Shown one piece after another: positions 5,996-42,229 of a stretch of 64,000 nt of DNA. Numbering within the stretch: position 1 is the first letter of the stretch; every line of letters starts with the position of its first letter. Origin of the DNA: Phage NC-B; the sequence record MK310183; one strand, written 5' to 3'. Under the pieces are notes generated by a model. It had not been told where the DNA came from and did not search any database. It saw nothing but the letters and a program-made list of their open reading frames with translations. A program made the position numbers and the translations under genes.

Positions 5996-6232
5996 ATGAA
6001 TACAAGACAGCAATTCAATAAAGAGCACGCCGCCGCTTTGGCGGCTCTCAATCACAACGGCATTCTTGACGCAGCATTAGAGGCATTAAAAGAAACCCTC
6101 ATGAGAGATATCGTATTAACCGAGGCTCATGAGAATAAGAAACGCGAAGAGTGTTATCAAAAGTATAAAATGGTTGGTAGCTTAAAAGAGGTCATAAAAG
6201 CTGCTATCAATAATGCAGGAGATATTTCCTAA
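5996..6232 (+). CDS. hypothetical protein
   Basis: 78 aa ORF between portal and scaffold; stop overlaps next start. Confidence 0.45.
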   Translation: MNTRQQFNKEHAAALAALNHNGILDAALEALKETLMRDIVLTEAHENKKREECYQKYKMVGSLKEVIKAAINNAGDIS

Positions 6233-7314
6233 TGGCAAATGATTATATTGACCCGAACGATTTTAAATCTTTCCTCCAACTAGACGACTTAAAAGGCTCC
6301 TTCAAAGAAGAGCTTAGTCAATTAGAATCAGAACGTGAACCAGAAGTGAACATTGATGATGAATTCCCAGAACAGTCTGAGACTTTTGATCTTGATGCTT
6401 CCGACCTTCTCGGTGATGACGATACGTTAGCGTTCGAAGATGAAGATGGTTGGGAAGATCGTGAAGAGGAAGGCGAAGAAGAAGAGGAAGAGTCGGAGTT
6501 CTCTGATGAAGACGATGAAGAAGATGATTCCGGTGAAGCAGATCACGATGAAGCTGCTAACAGTGATGAAGATGGCGAAGAAGGTGAAGTCTTTGACGTA
6601 GATTATGAAACTGTTATCACCCTTCCTGATGGTCGTGAGATGACTATTGAAGAGTTGTCTAATGGCTATTTGACTGGTGCAGAAATGTCCGAACGTGAGA
6701 CTACTTTGCAGCGTCATGTTGAAGCTTTTGAAGAACGTGTTGCTGGCTTGGGGGATGTATTAGAACTAGCTGCCCTAGAAGCAGACCGAGTAATTGAAGA
6801 TTACAACGGTTTTGATTGGGACAAACTCGCACAAGAAGATCCTCAAGCTTATGTAGAAAATAAACGTTTCTTAGAAAAATATACAGCTCGTCGCCAACAG
6901 CTTGAACAAGCTCAGCTTAAAATCAAGCAAGAAGCACTAGCAAAAGAACAACAGCTCTTCCAAGCTAAATGTACTGAGTGTGTAAGCGTACTTAAACGTG
7001 AGATTCCTAATTGGGATGACAACTTGTATCAGAACCTGATGCAGTATGCAATCGACTTAGGTGCTACAGAAGAAGAAGTGCTGAAAGAGAACCGTCCGTC
7101 AATCTTCCTAGCTCTACACAAAGCATACCAGTTTGATAAAGGTAAGCAGCAGGTGATGGCTAAGATTAAACGTCCCGGCTCTCCACGCAAGGTTGTGAAG
7201 TCCGATGCTTCTAAGTCTCGTTCTTCCAATACGCCAGACAACGCTAAGGTTGCCAAGGCATTCTCAGAGGGTCGTATTCGTCACGAAGACGCATTTAAGT
7301 ATCTCGTAGATTAA
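6232..7314 (+). CDS. scaffolding protein
   Basis: extremely acidic N-terminal half (D/E runs), helical coiled-coil C-terminal half, sits between portal and capsid. Confidence 0.7.
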   Translation: MANDYIDPNDFKSFLQLDDLKGSFKEELSQLESEREPEVNIDDEFPEQSETFDLDASDLLGDDDTLAFEDEDGWEDREEEGEEEEEESEFSDEDDEEDDSGEADHDEAANSDEDGEEGEVFDVDYETVITLPDGREMTIEELSNGYLTGAEMSERETTLQRHVEAFEERVAGLGDVLELAALEADRVIEDYNGFDWDKLAQEDPQAYVENKRFLEKYTARRQQLEQAQLKIKQEALAKEQQLFQAKCTECVSVLKREIPNWDDNLYQNLMQYAIDLGATEEEVLKENRPSIFLALHKAYQFDKGKQQVMAKIKRPGSPRKVVKSDASKSRSSNTPDNAKVAKAFSEGRIRHEDAFKYLVD

Positions 7315-26529: not shown

Positions 26530-29500
26530 ATGGCTAATTTAAAATCGTGGGAAGAAGCTTCCAAAGCTCCTGCGTATCTGAACGCCTCTCCAGAGCAACA
26601 GGCTCAAATGAGAGAACAATACAAGGCAGCAGGGGGCACTATTCCTGAGACTCAACCACAAGAGCAACCACAACAAGAAGAACGAGGTGCTATTGGGGAG
26701 TTTGCTCAAGGTGTGTCTAACGCTCTTCAATCAGGTGGTGCTAACATTGCAGCTAGTGCTGCTAAAGGTTTAGGTGGGCTGGTAGAGATTGGTGAAAACT
26801 TAACTGGTTCAGAAACAAGCTATGGTAAGCGCATTCAAGAGAACTCTAAGCAATTGCTGGAAGAACGCTTATCCAAGATAGAAGACGGTTTTGGTAAAAC
26901 AGCTGGTCAGTATGCTGGTGTTGCTGCTGATATTGGTTTGACAGTTGCAAACCCTGCTGTTGCTGCTGCTGTTATCGCAGCTCGTGAAACAGGTCGTGCT
27001 TATGCTGATCAAACTCCTAAAGAAGATGAAGATAAGTCAGTCTTAGATGCTGCTCTTGTTGGTGGTGCTAACTACGCTGCTCAGAAGATACTTCCGGGCA
27101 TGACTGGTACAGCTTCTACTACTCTTGGTCGTGTAGGACAAAGCGTAGCCTCTAACGCAGTTGCTGGTGCTAAGGGTGGTGCTATTGTTGGTGCTGCTGA
27201 AGCTCAGAACAAATATGGGGATGACACTACTCTAGCTAACGTATTAGAAGGGGCTATTGAAGAGGGTGCACTCGGTGCTGCTTATGGTGGGGCGATTGGT
27301 GGGGTTCATGGGTTAATAAGCCGTCCTAGCCCTCAAGTGTTTGATCGTACTCCTGAGCATGTTAAGACTGACATTGCTGCTGAAGATGAGGCTATTCGTA
27401 AAGCTGCTAACGCTGATGAACTTCGTGAAGCCTATGCTAAAGCTGAGAACGCTAATGCTGCCTCTGCTTTAAACCTTCTGGATGAAAATGGTTTCCGAAT
27501 CACAGATGCAGTTGCTATGGACTCTCCTGCTGTTCAGCGTATTTTAAATACAGACCAAAGCCGCGCTGAGAAGGCTGCTACGGTTCAGAAAGATAGCTCT
27601 AATGTTCCCGGTCTTAATCCTCTCGCTTCTCCTAAGAAGACTCAAGGTAAAGCTTTTGCTGACAATGAGTACAACCAGAAACAAGCTGTGGCAATGAAAG
27701 ATGCAATGGCTGACTACACTAAAGATAACACCAAAGCCCTTACTGATGTTCTAGACAATCTAGACCGAGAGTTAGTAGCTCTGAGAGCAAGTGGTGATTT
27801 TACTGGTAGTACTATTGACATTAAAAACCGTACTCAAGCTGATCGTGATTTTATTGATGCTTATAAAACTTTCTACAGCGAAGCTAATCGTTTCAAAGCT
27901 CGTGATGGTGAAGATCTAAACAACTTCATTGATAAAGCTACTCAGTTGCAGAAGCTATCTGAGAATGTTTCTCCAGAGATGAAGAAGGCCATTGGTGGAT
28001 TAAAGAAACTGAAAGGTATGCCTGAAGGTTTTAACCCTATTCAAGATGCTTTCACTCTGAATAATACAGCTAAGTTCATGAGTAACCAAGACCGTGGTTG
28101 GACCTCTCTGACTGATGATGGTTTTCGTGAAGCTCCGGCTCCTGTGCTAGTTAAGAACCCTCTCGGTGCAGCCAAGTATGTGCTTAATCGCTTTACTTCT
28201 GACCGTGCTCGTGCTCAACGTGAGAAGCAACAGTCAGCTAATAGTGAAGCTATCCGCTCTTTGGCTAGGGCTGATTTAGAAGTACAACGAGCTAGGACTC
28301 AGGCTGAAGAAGCAAGAGCAAAAATGGAAGAAGAACCAACCACAGAAGACATCAAATTCCGTACTCAAAATGATGCACCTTCCGAACCGGTTCGTGAGGA
28401 GCCTTCTGCTACTACTGTGACGGAAGAAATTCCTTCCTCTCCAGCTCCAACTGAAACACCTCTTACTGCGAGGGATTTAGTTGCTCAAAGACGTGCTATC
28501 CAACAAGCAGAGCTTAGACGTCAAGAAGCTGAAGCTGCTCAGGCTCAAGAAAGTGCTACACCAGAACCTGAACCACAGCAAGAAGCTCTTACAGCTAGAG
28601 AATTAGTAGCTCAGCGTAGGGCTGTAGCAGAGGCTAAGAAACGTCAAGAGGCAGAGGAAGCAGAACGTGCTAAAGAAGCTCCTGAGGAAGCCGTAGAAGA
28701 GCCTAAAGAGAAACCTGAGCCATTACCTGCTCGTGCTCCTAAAGCTCCTGAGAAGGCTCCTGAGCCTGTTAAACCGTCCCTTGGTGTAGAACGTCTAGCT
28801 TCTATGTCAACTGCTGCTCGTCAAGCAACAAAAGACCGTGCTGATCGATTTGCTCGTTCTTTGTATTCGGCTGCTGCTAAAGCTAAAGCCACTGCGGAAA
28901 ACTTCCTTTCTTACAAGGGAGATCCTAAAGAGCTTATGCGTCGTATCCGTCAGGAAGACCAAGCAAACAACACACAGCGTCATGAAGAGATGGCTAGAAA
29001 CCAACTAGCTTCCCAGCAAGGCATTGCTTCTGCTAAATCTCAACATGTTCGTGCTTCTTTTGCTGATTGGGTGAAAGAACGTGGGTTGCCTTCTGATATT
29101 GCTACTAAGGCTTTACGGGCTGAAGAGAAAGGTTTAGGTGGGAACGTCACAAGTCTAGATTCACTGAAGCGAAGAGCTGAGCGTTTATATCAGAAACAAA
29201 GAGATGATGAGTTTGACCGTCTCTATCGAGAGGCTCTGGAAGAGAATAAAGCTTTTGATAAGAGAGATGCTCCTAAACTGGTAGACCAGAAGAAAGAGCT
29301 TCAGGATGAAATTGGTGCGTTGCTTGATGCTGAACCGTTACGTCCTGCTCAGAAAGATGCTATGCGTAGGATTATGGAAGACTTCGTGGAGAGTAAGTTT
29401 AAATCTTCAGAGAAAGCTGGAAGGGTTGAGGCTTTGGAAGTTGGTCAGATGAAGGATGTGTGGGATGGGTTTATTAATACCTATAACCGAGAAGTTAACA

Positions 29501-30975
29501 TGTTCAACAAGGCTAACAAGAATTCTCAATACGAAGCAGCAGCTAAACACTTGCAAGCACGTCAAGAACGTCTTGAGACGCTCCGTAACAGAGCTAAGGC
29601 TCGCAGTGATGCTAAGGCAGCCATGGAGGCTGAGAAGCAGTCCTTGGAGGCTATAGCGGCTCAGAAATCAGAGATAGAGAAGATGTTCAAAGAATTGCCT
29701 GAAAGTGTCAGAGAGGCTCAGGAAGGGCGTACTTTGAAACAGCTTGCTGCTCACCATGATAAGAACTCTCCAGTACCACCAGAGCGTTTCCGTAGTATCA
29801 TTGAACGTATTCACAACGCTGAGAGTGATTACCTCGATCGAAAACGCCGTTTGACCGAAGCAGAGGAAGATGCTCGTGAAGCTAAGTGGAATAGGATGTA
29901 TGAACAGGCTGAGGAAATGAACCGTAAGTTTGATATCGATGCTAGAGTGAAGAGAGATAAAGCTCTAAAGGAAGCTCAAGAACGAGAGAATGACTTAATG
30001 GCAGTTCAACGTCAGCGTGATGACATTCATAAGCGTTTAGTCAATACTCTGGAAGAGAAGGGAGTTTCTAGGGAAGATGCTGAAGCGTATGCTGGGTCTT
30101 ACATGGATAATCGGTATGCTTTGTTAGAGAAACCAATGACTCCAGTGGAACATCAGAATGCTCGTGCTCGTATCGAATCTGACGTAGAGAAGTTTGTTAA
30201 GAAATACGAAACAGCTACTCCAATCGAAAGAGAGATTGCTAAGGCAACTGGTGATGCAGATGGGAAGGCTTCTGATCTGGATGCAGAAACAGCAAAAGCT
30301 ATTGAAGATGCTCGTAAAGTGGATTCTGACTTTAAGAAACTTTTAGATGAAGAGAAGGAAATGGAGAAGATTCGTTCGGCTCTACCTGAAGATGAAAGAT
30401 CTCAGGCGAACTCTGATATTCTGGAAAGTATCAAGAAACAGGAAGATGATTTTGCTAGCAAAGCAGAGAAAGCTTTTATTGAAGGGAAGGACTTGCAGGA
30501 GTTAGCGAGTGTTGCAGAAGTTCTAGATAGGGTTCATGGTGCAGACAAGGCTGGTAACAACCGTCGATTTGTACGTGCTCTACAGACTGCTGCCGAGAAC
30601 AAGAAACGTTATGGGGATAATCCAGTGGCTTGGTTTAGTGCTGATGATTATTCTGCTATTGCGAAACTTGGTGCTGCTTCGGCAGGTGGTAACAAATCTC
30701 GAGCACTTGAGAAGATCTTTGGTTCTACAGCAGAACAAGCTAAAGGGAAACTTTTAGGGCGGGATGATGTAGCTAAGATTAGGCGTGTGATTGAAGCGAA
30801 TCCTAATGTTAAGATTCCTTCTTACAAGACAACTACTAGACAAGAGTACATGCAGTTCTTGGAGAAGTATAATGACGAGGGAGAGTTGAAAGTCAAACGT
30901 GGTTCTCTGTCTGACAAGTTGGAGAGAGGTAAGCGTCAAGCCAAACTCCGTGTTAGAGTTCGAGCTAAGGAGTAA
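26530..30975 (+). CDS. large internal virion/ejection protein (1481 aa)
   Basis: A/E/K-rich coiled-coil protein, last gene of structural arm; no polymerase motifs. Confidence 0.5.
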   Translation: MANLKSWEEASKAPAYLNASPEQQAQMREQYKAAGGTIPETQPQEQPQQEERGAIGEFAQGVSNALQSGGANIAASAAKGLGGLVEIGENLTGSETSYGKRIQENSKQLLEERLSKIEDGFGKTAGQYAGVAADIGLTVANPAVAAAVIAARETGRAYADQTPKEDEDKSVLDAALVGGANYAAQKILPGMTGTASTTLGRVGQSVASNAVAGAKGGAIVGAAEAQNKYGDDTTLANVLEGAIEEGALGAAYGGAIGGVHGLISRPSPQVFDRTPEHVKTDIAAEDEAIRKAANADELREAYAKAENANAASALNLLDENGFRITDAVAMDSPAVQRILNTDQSRAEKAATVQKDSSNVPGLNPLASPKKTQGKAFADNEYNQKQAVAMKDAMADYTKDNTKALTDVLDNLDRELVALRASGDFTGSTIDIKNRTQADRDFIDAYKTFYSEANRFKARDGEDLNNFIDKATQLQKLSENVSPEMKKAIGGLKKLKGMPEGFNPIQDAFTLNNTAKFMSNQDRGWTSLTDDGFREAPAPVLVKNPLGAAKYVLNRFTSDRARAQREKQQSANSEAIRSLARADLEVQRARTQAEEARAKMEEEPTTEDIKFRTQNDAPSEPVREEPSATTVTEEIPSSPAPTETPLTARDLVAQRRAIQQAELRRQEAEAAQAQESATPEPEPQQEALTARELVAQRRAVAEAKKRQEAEEAERAKEAPEEAVEEPKEKPEPLPARAPKAPEKAPEPVKPSLGVERLASMSTAARQATKDRADRFARSLYSAAAKAKATAENFLSYKGDPKELMRRIRQEDQANNTQRHEEMARNQLASQQGIASAKSQHVRASFADWVKERGLPSDIATKALRAEEKGLGGNVTSLDSLKRRAERLYQKQRDDEFDRLYREALEENKAFDKRDAPKLVDQKKELQDEIGALLDAEPLRPAQKDAMRRIMEDFVESKFKSSEKAGRVEALEVGQMKDVWDGFINTYNREVNMFNKANKNSQYEAAAKHLQARQERLETLRNRAKARSDAKAAMEAEKQSLEAIAAQKSEIEKMFKELPESVREAQEGRTLKQLAAHHDKNSPVPPERFRSIIERIHNAESDYLDRKRRLTEAEEDAREAKWNRMYEQAEEMNRKFDIDARVKRDKALKEAQERENDLMAVQRQRDDIHKRLVNTLEEKGVSREDAEAYAGSYMDNRYALLEKPMTPVEHQNARARIESDVEKFVKKYETATPIEREIAKATGDADGKASDLDAETAKAIEDARKVDSDFKKLLDEEKEMEKIRSALPEDERSQANSDILESIKKQEDDFASKAEKAFIEGKDLQELASVAEVLDRVHGADKAGNNRRFVRALQTAAENKKRYGDNPVAWFSADDYSAIAKLGAASAGGNKSRALEKIFGSTAEQAKGKLLGRDDVAKIRRVIEANPNVKIPSYKTTTRQEYMQFLEKYNDEGELKVKRGSLSDKLERGKRQAKLRVRVRAKE

Positions 30976-30981
30976 ACAAGA

Positions 30982-31022
30982 AAAGCCCCCAACCTGTAAA
31001 AAGGAAGGGGGCTTCTTTATTT
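30982..31022. terminator. bidirectional terminator at convergence of the two arms
   Basis: GCCCCC(30985-30990)-16 nt loop-GGGGGC(31007-31012), T-rich on both flanks. Confidence 0.7.
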
Positions 31023-31080
31023 CTAGATGTTAGAATCCATCAAATTCATCATACATCCCAATTTTCTTCTTCAAAGTCAA

Positions 31081-31347
31081 TCATAAAACCTCCCAATCAT
31101 CTGCAAATAGATCACCTTGAGATGGAACCCATCCGGGCTGTACAATACCTTGAGCATTCTTTAAAACCAGATGAGGGGCAATATAGAACTGACCTACAAT
31201 ATCAGCTTTTTCGTAAAGAGAACCCGGTAGAGCTTCTTCTACTTCATAACCACCTGCTTTAAAGACAAACTGGTTTGCACCATTCCAACCAGAGCGAGTG
31301 ACCTTTTTCCCTTCTTTTACTTTAATAAGCGCTGAACTAAAATCCAT
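31081..31347 (-). CDS. hypothetical protein (possible DUF2829-like)
   Basis: 88 aa; N-terminal ALIKVKEGKKVTRSGWNG resembles a motif I associate with DUF2829 phage proteins (memory only). Confidence 0.5.
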   Translation of the reverse strand: MDFSSALIKVKEGKKVTRSGWNGANQFVFKAGGYEVEEALPGSLYEKADIVGQFYIAPHLVLKNAQGIVQPGWVPSQGDLFADDWEVL

Positions 31348-31355
31348 TTGTTCTC

Positions 31356-31655
31356 CTAGATTAAATCATAATACTTAATAATATCGGAGAGCTTAAACTC
31401 TCGAATGTCATTCTTGTCGTTGTCCCAAGCGGTCATTATCCAACAAGGTTTGCCCCCATTATGATAACGGGAAGAAGCAACTGAGGTTCGTAAAGGAATA
31501 ACGGAGCGGTCTGCAATTTCACCTCTCCAATTACGATAGCTAAAACGAAGAGTTTGTGTCGTAGATACTTGATCATTTGTGCTTTCCTTGTTCATGGATT
31601 CAAAGACTTCCTTTTCTTCAGGAGTCTCTAGATTTTTTAAATTCACGTCTTGCAT
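31356..31655 (-). CDS. hypothetical protein
   Basis: 99 aa ORF. Confidence 0.5.
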   Translation of the reverse strand: MQDVNLKNLETPEEKEVFESMNKESTNDQVSTTQTLRFSYRNWRGEIADRSVIPLRTSVASSRYHNGGKPCWIMTAWDNDKNDIREFKLSDIIKYYDLI

Positions 31656-32022
31656 CGTTTTCCTCTTTAGTTTTTATCTTATGGCAAGGCTCTTTGCATA
31701 AGACTTGAAAACCATCTTTCTCAACTAAAGCCCTCTCGATGATTTCATCCCAAGTAGCTTCATGGTCCACTGGAACAATAGGCTTTATATGGTCTACTGC
31801 TACGTCTTTAAGAGGAGAATCATTACCACACATGGCGCACTTGTAATGCATTGCCAGTTTGCCAGTTTTAGGGTTGATTTTACGTTCTGTCTGAGCCTCT
31901 TTGAGAGAATCAAACATAGGTTTCCATTTCCTAGTCAGAGAACGAATCCCTGACTTAATGAAGGAGTTATAACGTGCTTCAGTCCACTGACCAGAGCATC
32001 TTGTCTTCTCAGCTTTCGCCAT
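31618..32022 (-). CDS. HNH endonuclease
   Basis: HYKCAMCG...VDHIKP...LCKEPCHKIK HNH/zinc-finger pattern. Confidence 0.75.
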   Translation of the reverse strand: MAKAEKTRCSGQWTEARYNSFIKSGIRSLTRKWKPMFDSLKEAQTERKINPKTGKLAMHYKCAMCGNDSPLKDVAVDHIKPIVPVDHEATWDEIIERALVEKDGFQVLCKEPCHKIKTKEENDARREFKKSRDS

Positions 32023-32200
32023 AACCTACATCCATATCAGCATCTTCCCAAATGCGTTTATTGACTCGGTGTGATTCTTTATCAGCACGAGGGATACGAC
32101 CTGTGCGACGATCAAATGCTTGGTGCTTAATCTTTTGATCTTTACGAGATTCACGAGTAGAGAAGTTTTCATCATACGAACGATAGTCAAATTTACCCAT
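32009..32200 (-). CDS. hypothetical basic protein
   Basis: 63 aa ORF. Confidence 0.35.
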   Translation of the reverse strand: MGKFDYRSYDENFSTRESRKDQKIKHQAFDRRTGRIPRADKESHRVNKRIWEDADMDVGYGES

Positions 32201-32210
32201 TATAATATCC

Positions 32211-33032
32211 TTATTCCCAAGTTTTATCTAACCATGACCAATCAAAGAGGTCACCTTCAGCTTGTCCAACGAAGAGCAATCGAGCGTTTTCTAACATCTT
32301 ATCTTCTGCTTCTTCCTCGAACCTCTTATAGTATTCCATTCGTATAATATGATAAAGAGTCCACTTATCGAATACCTTCTCAATAAGTTTGATTGCAGCC
32401 TTGCTACCAATGCCTTTACGACGCATTACTAGATTGCCACCCCATATCATTTCAACCTTCTCACCACATCCGGGAATGTTATCTGTGCTATCCCCGATCA
32501 GCATCTGGTAGAAGAAGTTCTGCCATGCTACTTCCTCTGGTACATAGTGAGGAGGTACTTCTTTCTGTCTCTCCCCGCAAGCCCAACGGTAATGCCATCC
32601 GGGGGTGATTAACAAATCTTTATCACGGGTGCAAATGATAGTGTTCTTATCACGTCTCTGTCTTTCAGCTAAGGCATCATCTGCCTCTCTCCCAAAAACT
32701 TCAACGAATTCATAATTCTCTTTAATGTAATCGCTGACATTTTGCCAGTGGTGAGGTCTTTCTCCCGGTGGTCGATTAGCTTTATAACCTTGCTGCTTAG
32801 CAATATCAAACCGAAAATTACCACCTTCGCTGAAGTAAAAGATTGTTTTCTCGCAACCAGACCTTGCAATGATTACATCTATTTTATGTTGAAGTCGTTC
32901 AATCAAGAATCCATAATCAACTGGAACACGACCTGTGTCTAGAAAAGGATGCTCTTGTGTAAGAGCACCGACTTCATATCGCAGAACATCTGCATCTACA
33001 ATTGCTACTTCCGGATAGATTACATCAGACAT
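32211..33032 (-). CDS. 5'-3' exonuclease / flap endonuclease
   Basis: motifs IVDADVLRYE, GREADDALA, TRDKDLL, GDSTDNIPG; start moved to internal ATG 33032 (overlaps upstream stop by 8 nt). Confidence 0.85.
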   Translation of the reverse strand: MSDVIYPEVAIVDADVLRYEVGALTQEHPFLDTGRVPVDYGFLIERLQHKIDVIIARSGCEKTIFYFSEGGNFRFDIAKQQGYKANRPPGERPHHWQNVSDYIKENYEFVEVFGREADDALAERQRRDKNTIICTRDKDLLITPGWHYRWACGERQKEVPPHYVPEEVAWQNFFYQMLIGDSTDNIPGCGEKVEMIWGGNLVMRRKGIGSKAAIKLIEKVFDKWTLYHIIRMEYYKRFEEEAEDKMLENARLLFVGQAEGDLFDWSWLDKTWE

Positions 33033-33621
33033 AGAGACCTCTCCGTGTCCCTTCAATAATCCACTCCAAATCCTCCACTGCCTCTTCTACAGAACGGTCG
33101 TTAAAGAGGAGATAGGTTGGTAGATTTGTTCCTTCAATATAAGAACGAGAGTCCCCTTCAAAGGAGCAGCCATCTCGGAGAATCTGAACTACTCGAACAT
33201 GGAAGTGTTTCTCTAGTTCTTCAACTTCTGCTTTAAATCCACCATCAGAGAAGACGATAACATCATTCTGTGATGGGATACGTTGTTGAATATTGCTAAC
33301 AGCAAGTTTACCCATGCAGGTCTCACCAAACATGGGCTTCAGATAGTTCTCACTAGTTGCAATCATCAAGTCTCGAACTGACTTACCGTCCCATTCAGGA
33401 CGGCTATGTTCTTTCCACTCACGATCGTTGTACAGCTCCATGAACTCATAAAGAGGTAGACCTAATGCAGCAGCAGCCACTCGATACATAGGCTCCTTAA
33501 AAGCCTTTACATGCGGCCTAAACTCGGTGTTACCAAGTGTTTTCTCTAACCAAGAATTAGCGATTGTGTCTTTACCACAACCCGGTGGTCCATTCAGAAT
33601 TACTACTAATGGTTTACTCAT
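33025..33621 (-). CDS. P-loop kinase, putative (d)NMP kinase
   Basis: Walker A LNGPPGCGKDT. Confidence 0.55.
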   Translation of the reverse strand: MSKPLVVILNGPPGCGKDTIANSWLEKTLGNTEFRPHVKAFKEPMYRVAAAALGLPLYEFMELYNDREWKEHSRPEWDGKSVRDLMIATSENYLKPMFGETCMGKLAVSNIQQRIPSQNDVIVFSDGGFKAEVEELEKHFHVRVVQILRDGCSFEGDSRSYIEGTNLPTYLLFNDRSVEEAVEDLEWIIEGTRRGLYV

Positions 33622-34271
33622 TATTGAATCATCCCTTGAAGATCTTCTTTATCAAAGTGCTTCTCTACTACCGCTTCATACAGATCACGATTCTCTGAAT
33701 AACGACGATAGAAGGTTCCGTGTGAAATTCCCAACTCTTGCTGGATGTGATCATGTGGGATGCCGAGAAAGAGCATTGAGAACATGCTTGCCATCTTACG
33801 GTTTTCCATAATGTCACTCAGGTCTTGGAAGAAGAAAAAGATTCTAGATTCCAAGAACGGATCTCCAGTAGAATCATGCTTATCCATCGCAATCTCTAAA
33901 GGACTTTCCCATGAATTCATCTCAGGAGGTCTAAACATATCAGCCTCTGGAATAGAGTAGATACGTCGGTCTCCAACTGTCTGACGATTAGAACGAATCG
34001 ACCAGATGATATTCTTGACACGATAAGTCATGTGCTCAATATCTTTTTCATCAGTGAGCAGAAGTTCTTCTTGCTTTGCAAACACAAAACGCCAAGCGTT
34101 CAGTAATACTTCCTGAGCAACATCCTCTGCCTCGTGATAGTCTTTAATGTCATACATAAAATACTTATGCACAACTTTCCAGTTCTCTCGATAAAATTCA
34201 TCGAAGGTTGGATAATATTTAATAGGTATGCCATGAATACGATAGCGTGTGGGTGTTGTCTTTTTCTTCAT
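33621..34271 (-). CDS. phage-encoded sigma factor (sigma-70/ECF-like)
   Basis: region-2-like [18 protein letters not shown] and C-terminal [24 protein letters not shown]. Confidence 0.7.
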
Positions 34272-34295
34272 AAGTCGTCCTTAACTTACTTTACA

Positions 34296-34520
34296 TTAAA
34301 CTACACAGAATAAATACATTGCTGTATCAGGACAAGGGATGGCTGTCTGAATGCCACTTACTTTAATCCACATATCCTCTTCAGAGTCATAATAAGCCCA
34401 ATAGGACTGATCTCCATCTACAAAGAATTTAAAGGTTCGTCCCCAAACCTGATTATTGTATTCCCATACTGCATGAAGCTGAGTAACACCTTCTGGTATT
34501 GTAAGTTCCGCTCTGATCAT
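34296..34520 (-). CDS. hypothetical protein
   Basis: 74 aa ORF; start overlaps upstream stop (ATGA). Confidence 0.45.
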   Translation of the reverse strand: MIRAELTIPEGVTQLHAVWEYNNQVWGRTFKFFVDGDQSYWAYYDSEEDMWIKVSGIQTAIPCPDTAMYLFCVV

Positions 34521-34777
34521 TGTATTCCTCTCTCCTTGAGAGCTTTAAGCAAACCGTTGTGGTTAGCGGCACAGGTTGTATAATTGTCCTGATACCACTC
34601 GAGTGTTGTTGCAAGTGCTACTCCCTGTCCACTCTGAAGTAAAGGGAGGTCTACATCACATTCAGCTTTTAGGTTTGTTGGTAAGGGCATTAGCTGCCTG
34701 CTGTTGTCGCTCGTTGAACAAGCTGACATACTCATCACTAGCACACACATTGTAAAAAACTGGCTTAGTCTTTTCAT
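34517..34777 (-). CDS. o-spanin (Rz1-like outer-membrane lipoprotein)
   Basis: signal peptide with lipobox ...VMSMSAC; Pro-rich mature part; gene overlaps i-spanin 3' end in another frame. Confidence 0.6.
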   Translation of the reverse strand: MKRLSQFFTMCVLVMSMSACSTSDNSRQLMPLPTNLKAECDVDLPLLQSGQGVALATTLEWYQDNYTTCAANHNGLLKALKERGIQ

Positions 34778-35009
34778 AATGCATCTCTTTGTAAATAGTT
34801 TCCGTGTTCTTCTTCCAGTTTGATAAACCAGTCAGAACTTTCTGAGCCACTTCATCAGCAGCCTTAGCTCTCTCAATCTCAATCTCTTGCTGTTTCTTCT
34901 CTTGGTCAAGAGCATTGCTGTCATTTCGATATTGCTCAAACTTGACACCACCAAAGAAAATCAGAGCTGTGAAGATTAAAAAACCTATATTGTTTTGAAG
35001 CTTTTCCAT
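34662..35009 (-). CDS. i-spanin (Rz-like)
   Basis: N-terminal TM (IGFLIFTALIFFGG) then coiled-coil periplasmic domain; start set to ATG 35009 (GGAG SD) because GTG 35033 lies inside the upstream terminator. Confidence 0.6.
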   Translation of the reverse strand: MEKLQNNIGFLIFTALIFFGGVKFEQYRNDSNALDQEKKQQEIEIERAKAADEVAQKVLTGLSNWKKNTETIYKEMHYEKTKPVFYNVCASDEYVSLFNERQQQAANALTNKPKS

Positions 35010-35021
35010 TTTAACTCCAAC

Positions 35022-35049
35022 GAAAAAAGCCACCCGAAGGTGGCTAAGC
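35022..35049 (-). terminator. rho-independent terminator
   Basis: minus-strand AGCCACC-UUCG-GGUGGCU then UUUUUUCG. Confidence 0.75.
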
Positions 35050-35808: not shown

Positions 35809-36141
35809 ATTAATATTTCCTTATATAGATTTAAGATTGTTGCTCTCTTTGAGCGGTTTGTATACTATATACATTACACTTATACAGATAAGGTTCTATT
35901 ATACTATAACCTTTTTGGTAGTAGATAATGACAAGTAGTAATGTATATATGGTATAGCTAGTAAAGCTATTGCAGGCTTGTATATTGGGCAATCATTGTA
36001 ACCCTTGCAAGTACCGAAGGGCAGGAGACACCTGCGAGATAAAAATAGAGAATTAAGGAAATCCTTGATTTAGGTTGAGGACTCCTAGGACTTTGATTCT
36101 CTATTAAAATCAAAAGAAAACTTAACTTAAAACAATAACTT
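35809..36141. promoter_or_regulatory. long AT-rich intergenic region, candidate promoter cluster or origin
   Basis: 333 bp non-coding; repeated TATAC/TATACT motifs; inverted repeat AGAGAAT...ATTCTCT around a CCTAGG palindrome. Confidence 0.35.
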
Positions 36142-42217: not shown

Positions 42218-42229
42218 TATACATTATGT

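Follow-up and report, generated by a model that had tools for sequence, protein, structure and literature searches.

A Tad2-family protein at a variable cargo site of a Gordonclarkvirinae phage is a candidate sponge for a type II Thoeris signal

The Tad2 family is large and well described (2,783 non-redundant homologs in IMG/VR according to the 2025 sponge-diversity preprint), and its members bind a TIR-made signal without degrading it, so that the effector is starved of its activator. Tad2 proteins assemble as homotetramers in which non-dimeric protomers meet to form two symmetric pockets, and individual members bind variously 3'cADPR, 2'cADPR, His-ADPR, N7-cADPR, cGG/cGAMP or cUMP/cCMP. SPO1 Tad2 binds 1''-3' and 1''-2' gcADPR and inhibits type I Thoeris; it neither inhibits type II Thoeris nor binds cyclic nucleotides. 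ModTad2 binds His-ADPR, the signal of type II Thoeris, as well as cUMP/cCMP in a second pocket, and does not inhibit type I Thoeris. HgmTad2 and SptTad2 also bind cGG/cGAMP, by way of a long insertion, and Tad2_71 inhibits Thoeris I, II and IV. Sabonis et al. reported that two prophage homologs, namely TmoTad2 from Tatumella morbirosei and CcaTad2 from Clostridium cadaveris, inhibit the type II Thoeris system of B. amyloliquefaciens Y2; ModTad2 alone was used for His-ADPR capture in that study.

The gene described here lies within the 64,000-nucleotide stretch of DNA that was analysed (hereafter the window) and that comes from a Gordonclarkvirinae (Suseptimavirus-like) E. coli phage. Its coding sequence occupies positions 31081..31347 of the minus strand and comprises, in the open reading frame listing, an ATG start, 88 codons and a TGA stop; the product is MDFSSALIKVKEGKKVTRSGWNGANQFVFKAGGYEVEEALPGSLYEKADIVGQFYIAPHLVLKNAQGIVQPGWVPSQGDLFADDWEVL. 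The initial annotation had placed a small protein at 31081-31347, with no strand given, and had likened its N-terminus to DUF2829-type proteins, with a Tad2-like sponge as a possible identity. The coordinates hold for the minus strand, and the product is indeed a small, phage-encoded protein of 88 residues, in which the motif quoted at the time, ALIKVKEGKKVTRSGWNG, forms residues 6-23. Two plus-strand alternatives were rejected, since translation of 31081-31347 in that direction is riddled with stops and a 46-residue open reading frame at 31122-31262, which overlaps tad2, is without support. A putative ribosome-binding site, GGAG, can be read from the sequence at 31353..31356 on the minus strand, 7-10 nt 5' of the ATG. 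This GGAG overlaps the TAG stop codon (31356-31358) of the preceding WYL-like gene, leaving an intergenic gap of 8 nt, so that translational coupling of the two genes is plausible.

The resemblance to DUF2829 is far above chance. A Pfam-A profile search, the check proposed alongside the initial annotation with a missing profile match as the outcome that would count against it, assigns the protein to PF11195.14 (Tad2-like, named 'Thoeris anti-defense 2-like domain'; formerly DUF2829) with an E-value of 1.9e-23 and a score of 83.2 bits, where the gathering cutoff is 25 bits. The match is full-length (profile positions 1-73 of 73, protein residues 1-88), and each of the 56 database homologs likewise carries PF11195. 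A phmmer search of PDB sequences returned seven distinct chains, all of them Tad2 proteins, with E-values from 1.7e-11 to 6e-8: SptTad2 (8WJD, the best at 1.7e-11), Myroides Tad2 (8V3E and 9EIB), SPO1 Gp34.65 (8SME and 8WJE) and HgmTad2/AcrIIA7 (8KBI and 9KZR). Other resources say little about function: PHROGs places the protein in phrog_1048 and phrog_872, both function-unknown, and an NCBIfam profile search matched neither the protein nor the neighbouring WYL-like product.

Structure prediction points the same way. An AlphaFold2 model built from a 55-sequence alignment (mean pLDDT 96.0, pTM 0.81) contains helices at residues 3-11, 44-47 and 77-80 in addition to strands, and displays the N-terminal helix, the antiparallel beta sheet and the short helices in the beta2-beta3 and beta4-beta5 loops that characterize the Tad2 fold. 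When this model was compared with the PDB using Foldseek, the 24 best matches were all Tad2 structures (E 7e-8 to 4e-6, TM 0.65-0.81), and the 25th, the first beyond them, reached an E-value of only 0.59. The full-length profile match, the PDB sequence matches to Tad2 proteins only and the AlphaFold2/Foldseek result together make the family assignment secure, and we regard membership in the Tad2 family as virtually certain. The Tad2-like identity first proposed is thus supported by profile and fold, and further by the core pocket residues and the purifying selection described below.

The pocket of SPO1 Tad2 (Gp34.65; 8SME/8SMF/8SMG), the founding member of the family, has been described residue by residue. 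According to the Yirmiya et al. preprint, W25 and W73 make van der Waals contacts to gcADPR, N26 and D79 make polar contacts, T78 is hydrogen-bonded to the adenine, I63 and T65 make non-polar contacts, and N26, D67, H71, W73, S76 and D79 coordinate water. We checked the SPO1 numbering on the full SPO1 sequence given in Table S3 of Sabonis et al., and mappings by HMMER and by MAFFT agree. All four direct signal contacts are kept in the phage protein (W25 as W21, N26 as N22, W73 as W73 and D79 as D79), as is S76 at the same number. Five neighbouring positions are changed, namely T78 to G78, I63 to L62, T65 to N64, D67 to Q66 and H71 to Q70; the T65, D67, H71 and T78 replacements fall on water-coordinating or adenine-side residues of SPO1 Tad2. 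The same pattern runs through the close relatives. In an alignment of the phage protein with 54 of the 56 database homologs (55 sequences), W21, N22, Q26, P71, W73, P75, S76, Q77 and D79 are invariant and N64, A65, Q66, Q70, G72 and G78 nearly so, and the motif SQGD, which places Gly at the position of SPO1 T78, is found in 55 of the 56 homologs. Judged from these alignments, the pocket core is intact and the pocket periphery carries a clade-specific signature.

Comparison with the well-characterized members places the phage protein among the short forms of the family. SPO1 Tad2, encoded by a Bacillus myophage, resembles it in fold, in length and in the five retained pocket residues, and differs from it in overall sequence (33-35% identity) and in the five substitutions in and around the pocket. 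ModTad2, from a Myroides odoratus prophage (8V3E, apo; 9EIB, with His-ADPR), is the best structural match (Foldseek E 7e-8, TM 0.77). It too has 88 residues, a short insertion and the GWNG and W..S..D..EDW motifs, but it is only 33-38% identical, reads SVSD where the phage protein reads SQGD, and keeps the equivalents of T65 and D67, which are N and Q in the phage protein. The dual gcADPR/cyclic-dinucleotide sponges HgmTad2/AcrIIA7 and SptTad2 (8KBI-8KBM, 8WJD) share the core fold and have W21 and N22 at identical numbering; unlike the phage protein, they carry Thr in place of G78 and a 41-residue beta2-beta5 insertion that forms the cGG/cGAMP pocket. The corresponding insertion of the phage protein spans 27 residues (32-58), compared with 24 in SPO1 Tad2 and 41 in HgmTad2, and alignment to SptTad2 opens an 8-residue gap. 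By sequence, then, this is a 'short' Tad2 with 27 residues in place of the extended insertion of about 41 that houses the cyclic-dinucleotide pocket.

The position of SPO1 T78 deserves particular attention. Its counterpart in HgmTad2, T92, was among the residues changed (S90A/T92A/D93A) to probe where gcADPR binds. Thr occupies this position in SPO1 Tad2, HgmTad2 and SptTad2, while Ser, Ala and Gly occupy it in the three type II inhibitors and Gly in the phage protein. Thr versus a small residue thus tracks gcADPR versus type II activity in a suggestive manner across six sequences, three against three, with gcADPR binding shown for SPO1 Tad2 and HgmTad2 and SptTad2 counted by its residue alone; the position is a candidate and no established determinant of specificity.

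These residues bear on a reading in which the protein would be a Tad2 in the type I style: it would sequester 3'cADPR, possibly 2'cADPR as well, and would block type I Thoeris, or type V/VI systems with identical signal molecules, and not type II. In favour of this reading, all four direct gcADPR contacts and S76 are retained in the pocket core; moreover, the majority of the first-tested Tad2 homologs inhibited type I Thoeris, type I Thoeris occurs in E. coli, and the type VI (2'cADPR) systems were cloned from E. coli strains. Against this, the adenine-bonding Thr has become Gly in the phage protein and nearly its entire clade, T65, D67 and H71 have all been replaced, ModTad2 lacked type I inhibition in the study of Sabonis et al., and a tested relative with 67% identity was reported in that same study as a type II inhibitor. 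We consider the type I-style reading unlikely.

That relative emerged from a search in which one genome per bacterial species was scanned with the conserved peptides of the clade, yielding 27 loci. The homolog from T. morbirosei LMG 23360 is 67% identical to the phage protein (57 of 85 positions, residues 1-85) and is encoded by a prophage, where it has the lysis genes on one side and the terminase on the other. The two proteins are alike in length (90 residues in T. morbirosei), in their enterobacterial hosts and in the clade signature, GWNG..QF followed by NAQGxxQPGWVPSQGDLFAxDW, which includes the Gly at the SPO1 T78 position. They differ in about one third of their residues, mostly in the variable region 31-60, and in setting, a temperate prophage versus a virulent podophage. 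By comparison, the phage protein is only 33-41% identical to ModTad2, SPO1 Tad2, SptTad2 and the second tested type II inhibitor (38-41% for the other two type II inhibitors).

Whether the T. morbirosei homolog is the protein that was assayed required some care, because the construct labelled 'TmoTad2' in Table S3 of Sabonis et al. (row 19, 37% GC) has a sequence that is absent from the Tatumella locus. The insert in row 20, labelled 'CcaTad2' (51% GC), is identical to the Tatumella contig at 273 of 273 nt. The doubt was dismissed on the strength of this exact identity, and the two labels look swapped in that table. The conclusion regarding type II is independent of the labels, since both constructs were reported active. 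We found no report in the literature on T. morbirosei Tad2 and type I Thoeris.

On this evidence the phage protein is very probably a sponge for a TIR-derived signal. The fuller statement, that it is a Thoeris signal sponge with type II specificity, is the one we favour, with somewhat less assurance. By analogy with the tested inhibitors its ligand is probably His-ADPR, the signal of type II Thoeris with its Macro-domain membrane effector. A target for such a sponge is present in the host, E. coli. The likely ligand would thus differ from that of SPO1 Tad2, because the system that the closest tested relative (67% identity) is reported to inhibit is type II and not canonical type I; an identity of 67% does not guarantee the ligand, since Tad2 specificity is plastic.

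This plasticity also gives room to a different or broader set of signals, which could be a pan-Thoeris range like that of Tad2_71, cyclic nucleotides (mono- or di-) held in an additional pocket, or a new signal from one of the numerous E. coli TIR systems yet to be characterised. Taken together, members of the Tad2 family inhibit CBASS, Pycsar and types I, II and IV of Thoeris, with single members acting on several systems, and even the short ModTad2 still binds cUMP in its second pocket. The clade also has invariant or nearly invariant residues of its own, Q26, N64, Q66, Q70 and G78, that line the pocket region. The length of the insertion speaks against binding of cyclic nucleotides, as its 27 residues are near the 24 of SPO1 Tad2, which binds none, and well short of the 41 in HgmTad2. 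Overall we judge a different or broader signal set to be rather unlikely. A related conjecture, which we put forward tentatively and with some reserve, is that proteins with these five residues form an 'SQGD' clade with a ligand specificity of its own that has yet to be described, directed at an E. coli TIR signal or at Thoeris generally, and that the change at T78 may act as a switch between gcADPR and His-ADPR.

The genomic setting of the gene is that of Gordonclarkvirinae, a group of E. coli podophages that resemble phiEco32 and have prolate heads. The 4.2 kb of sequence surrounding tad2 are 97.4% identical to Escherichia phage AnnaHegner_Bas87 and 93-96% identical to EK010, SU7 and other Gordonclarkvirinae (Suseptimavirus/Kuravirus). 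Structural genes occupy the plus strand of the window up to 30975, and a long minus-strand arm of non-structural genes runs leftward from about 63.5 kb to 31081, with tad2 as its last gene. Upstream in the same arm, and probably co-transcribed with tad2, are minus-strand genes for a sigma factor (33621-34271), a dNMP kinase (33025-33621), an exonuclease (32211-33056), a 63-residue protein (32009-32200), an HNH endonuclease (31618-32022) and, directly upstream, the WYL-like protein of 99 residues (31356-31655). These assignments derive from the open reading frame listing, from Pfam and PHROGs and from the annotation of the Bas87 record.

The two arms converge on a strong bidirectional intrinsic terminator at 30984..31023 (hairpin 30984-31013), which has U-rich tracts on both strands and closes the transcription unit of tad2. 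Its hairpin folds with -20.6 kcal/mol on the plus strand and -22.4 kcal/mol on the minus strand (z -3.3 and -4.0, respectively), and the SU7 and 4E8 records annotate the equivalent terminator on both strands. A generic terminator scan missed it because of its long loop; folding confirmed it. Another hairpin, a weak one, lies at 31387-31402. Between this terminator and tad2 lies a putative mini-ORF of 11 codons at 31049..31084 on the minus strand, encoding MIDFEEENWDV and a stop, whose ATG overlaps the tad2 stop codon (ATGA).

Expression of tad2 is probably middle-class, by analogy with phiEco32, in which the block of DNA polymerase, nucleotide metabolism and sigma genes is of the middle class and is driven by gp36-dependent promoters with a single element, tAATGTAtA (PMC8948821). 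A candidate promoter of this middle/late type, TAATGTAAA, is found at 34290..34298 on the minus strand, just 5' of the sigma gene and one mismatch away from the phiEco32 element; it may conceivably drive a unit that ends with tad2. Exact copies of tAATGTAtA occur at 35868-35876 and 42218-42226, also on the minus strand. A scan of the whole window gave 25 matches of this type compared with 18 +/- 4 in shuffled sequences, which is not significant, and promoter assignments by this motif are therefore tentative. A consensus scan also found a sigma-70-like match, TAGATA-17-TATTAT, at 32202..32230 on the minus strand, 5' of the gene for the 63-residue protein, and a promoter is marked at the corresponding point of the SU7 record; this match may serve as an internal promoter from which the genes of the 63-residue protein, the HNH endonuclease, the WYL-like protein and tad2 are read.

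The end of this arm varies among related phages. The tad2 gene is found in Bas86, Bas87, Bas88, EK010, E20-1 and TH43, and in ShigP1 in a form with 69% identity; overall, 8 of about 100 phage records that match the region contain it (about 7 related phages). It is absent from UKE3, SU7 and 4E8, and the pattern of match coverage suggests that IME267, MLP3 and HC-25922 are without it as well. Across the indel UKE3 reads CTAGGAGGTTTTATGATTGAC, and in the alignment the same flanks enclose tad2 in the window, so that the gene constitutes a clean cassette with GGAG microhomology at both junctions. Elsewhere the same slot holds an HNH endonuclease (PAS59), tad2 together with an HNH endonuclease (ShigP1) or about 110 extra bases (SU7). 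From these sequences, the slot is best described as a variable cargo site at the end of the arm. The mini-ORF is kept in phages with and without tad2, and in UKE3 it lies directly 3' of AGGAGG; it forms the downstream boundary of the presence/absence polymorphism.

Among the phages that carry tad2, two diverged groups of alleles can be distinguished, A (the window, Bas88 and TH43) and B (EK010, Bas86 and Bas87). The tad2 DNA of the window is 95% identical to the Bas88 gene and 86% identical to the Bas87 gene, whereas its flanks are 98% identical to Bas87 and 84-90% identical to Bas88. This reversal between gene and flanks indicates exchange of alleles by recombination. Pairwise comparison of six phage alleles gives dN/dS values of 0.07-0.16 with dS up to 0.62, and hence indicates purifying selection on tad2. 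With the gene as query, blastn returned no match in 5,426 complete E. coli genomes, and thus no prophage copies at the DNA level in that set.

Since close relatives do without it, the gene must be dispensable, and this property would also suit a protein with some other role, be it an AcrIIA7-like anti-CRISPR, a different function altogether or a passenger gene in decay. AcrIIA7/HgmTad2, which is a DUF2829 protein, was originally described as an anti-CRISPR against type II-A, and 19 of the 84 tested sponge homologs from three families (Acb2, Tad1 and Tad2), about a quarter, inhibit none of seven systems. The anti-CRISPR reading was rejected: the phage protein shares only the DUF2829 domain with AcrIIA7, the AcrIIA7 claim came without a binding mechanism, and later work showed AcrIIA7 to be a sponge for gcADPR and cGG and reinterpreted it accordingly. 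The pseudogene reading was rejected as well, because a gene under such selection, even at dS up to 0.6, with an intact ribosome-binding site and an invariant pocket, does not behave as a decaying one. We also know of no type II-A Cas9 system in E. coli, which counts further against an anti-CRISPR function. All told, a role outside signal sequestration is very improbable.

We therefore return to the preferred reading, that of a Thoeris signal sponge with type II specificity. It rests on the family and fold of the protein, its conserved pocket core, the purifying selection on an accessory gene and the close relationship with a tested type II inhibitor; from these we infer, by analogy with the solved Tad2 proteins, the tetramer, the identity of the ligand, the anti-Thoeris activity in vivo and the timing of expression. 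The tad2 gene is accessory cargo, located where the leftward, probably middle-class arm ends. In the proposed mechanism, four copies of its product would assemble into a homotetramer with two symmetric inter-protomer pockets, each lined by W21 and N22 of the beta1-beta2 loop and by W73, S76 and D79 of the beta4-alpha3 region. Following infection, these pockets would sequester the ADP-ribose-derived alarm molecule produced by a host TIR (ThsB) protein, such that the Thoeris effector never fires and the phage cycle runs to completion. The likeliest target would be type II Thoeris, with histidine-ADPR as its signal.

What is new here is modest: a prediction of type II specificity, a natural polymorphism both in presence/absence and between two alleles, and a candidate position for specificity; otherwise the protein is an ordinary member of its family, and the understanding of how Tad2 proteins work is unchanged. 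The practical value lies in annotation and in the choice of phages. Gordonclarkvirinae are noted for their broad host range and their resistance to tested defence systems and are of interest for therapy. With a sponge present in some members and not in close relatives, plating on E. coli that carries Thoeris is predicted to differ from strain to strain, and tad2-plus and tad2-minus phages offer a natural set for comparison. Kinship with a tested type II inhibitor likewise supplies a specific and cheap hypothesis on specificity (G78 versus Thr). Should the SQGD clade prove to have a specificity of its own, the plus and minus phages with their two alleles would amount to a ready set of isogenic-like strains for testing, and a new signal could be captured with the protein as bait.

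Existing records name this protein unevenly. It is a 'hypothetical protein' in every Gordonclarkvirinae record inspected (Bas86-88, EK010, E20-1 and ShigP1), and Tad2 and Thoeris go unmentioned both in the BASEL completion paper and in a recent paper on Kuravirus. Several relatives are listed in RefSeq as 'DUF2829 domain-containing protein', and UniRef names the 72%-identical relative from IME_EC2 'Thoeris anti-defense 2-like'. Relatives with 60-72% identity are in fact encoded by unrelated phages, namely the Murrayvirus phages IME_EC2 and sortsyn and the Schitoviridae phage TR2. At the two of these loci that were examined, those of IME_EC2 and TR2, the gene again lies near the end of a replication/recombination arm, beside convergent structural genes.

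Nucleotide comparison of the window tad2 (31081-31347, minus strand), encoding a predicted Thoeris signal sponge, with the Bas87 record (L001) and records L004-L007 identifies an 'A' allele that is 95% identical to its counterpart in Bas88 and 93% identical to that in TH43. The flanks of the gene are 98% identical to Bas87, and Bas87 itself carries a 'B' allele with 86% identity to the window tad2. On these alignments, the tad2 locus is clearly mosaic, the product of local recombination. In the relatives PAS59 and ShigP1, this slot or a neighboring one is occupied by HNH homing endonuclease genes, and genes of this kind might drive the exchange of tad2 alleles.

The window phage encodes a 134-amino acid HNH endonuclease close by (31618-32022, minus strand; phrog_3106, E 5e-37). 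For this region, the GenBank records of EK010 (LC553734), E20-1, PAS59, SU7 (MZ342906), and 4E8 list a 'terminase small subunit'. Inspection of per-gene coordinates in two of these records, 4E8 and PAS59, places the label on the ortholog of the HNH gene, where it is probably a mis-annotation. A further HNH endonuclease gene lies inside the Rz-like spanin gene of Bas87, annotated as a two-piece join (L001 8163-9055) with an intron-like insertion. The corresponding region of the window (approximately 34662-35033, minus strand) is some 545 bp shorter than in Bas87, as judged by coordinate offsets, and contains an uninterrupted 123-amino acid ORF; on this evidence, the window phage seems to lack the mobile insertion.

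The immediate upstream neighbor of tad2 is a WYL-like gene (31356-31655, minus strand) whose 99-amino acid product consists of a stand-alone domain (PF13280, 25 bits versus a gathering threshold of 21.8; phrog_3715, unknown function). The first 38 nt of the WYL-like gene are shared with the HNH gene. Unlike tad2, the WYL-like gene is kept across the Gordonclarkvirinae, with forms of 79-99 amino acids in PAS59, ShigP1, SU7, and UKE3. WYL domains in defense regulators act as sensors of ligands or nucleic acids, and the presence of a tiny phage-encoded WYL protein beside a sponge gene is for that reason curious. Shortly before tad2, the WYL-like gene harbors in its 3' end a small hairpin, GAGAGTTTAAGCTCTC (31387-31402, minus strand; folding energy -7.4 kcal/mol, z -2.7), and the 4E8 record carries an annotated terminator near the equivalent position. 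If this hairpin attenuates transcription, tad2 would be expressed below the level of the upstream genes.

At its other end, the tad2 stop codon overlaps, as ATGA, the start of an 11-codon mini-ORF, MIDFEEENWDV* (31049-31084, minus strand). Conservation of the mini-ORF extends to phages without tad2; in their genomes it sits directly 3' of AGGAGG. The encoded peptide starts and finishes much like DUF2829 proteins, which have MDF at the N-terminus and DDWEV at the C-terminus; given this resemblance, the mini-ORF may be what is left of an earlier tad2 copy after an internal deletion. One database homolog, P0002 (99 amino acids), has a tad2 ORF that continues as far as the NWDV end of the mini-ORF.

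Salmonella phage vB_SalP_TR2 (Schitoviridae) carries two annotated DUF2829 genes (1520-1903 and 2495-2767 of L009), approximately 600 bp apart. Its 90-amino acid DUF2829 protein shares 60% identity with the window Tad2-like protein, and its 127-amino acid DUF2829-annotated protein gave no Pfam match in a scan at E <= 0.01. The pair may represent two sponges of differing specificity, or one of them may be mis-annotated.

Labels also appear to be swapped between the 'CcaTad2' and 'TmoTad2' inserts in Table S3 of Sabonis et al. (bioRxiv 10.1101/2024.01.03.573942). The 'TmoTad2' insert (37% GC) was not found in the Tatumella morbirosei LMG 23360 locus (L014), and the 'CcaTad2' insert (51% GC), labeled Clostridium cadaveris, matches that locus at 273 of 273 nt (6001-6273).

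The structural arm of the window ends with a gene (26530-30975, plus strand) for a highly charged, Ala/Glu/Lys/Gln-rich protein of 1,481 amino acids, annotated in relatives only as hypothetical or as a 'putative liver stage antigen'. Near-repeats such as LTARDLVAQRRAIQQAE and LTARELVAQRRAVAEAK occur within its sequence, and its presumed role is that of an internal virion or ejection protein.
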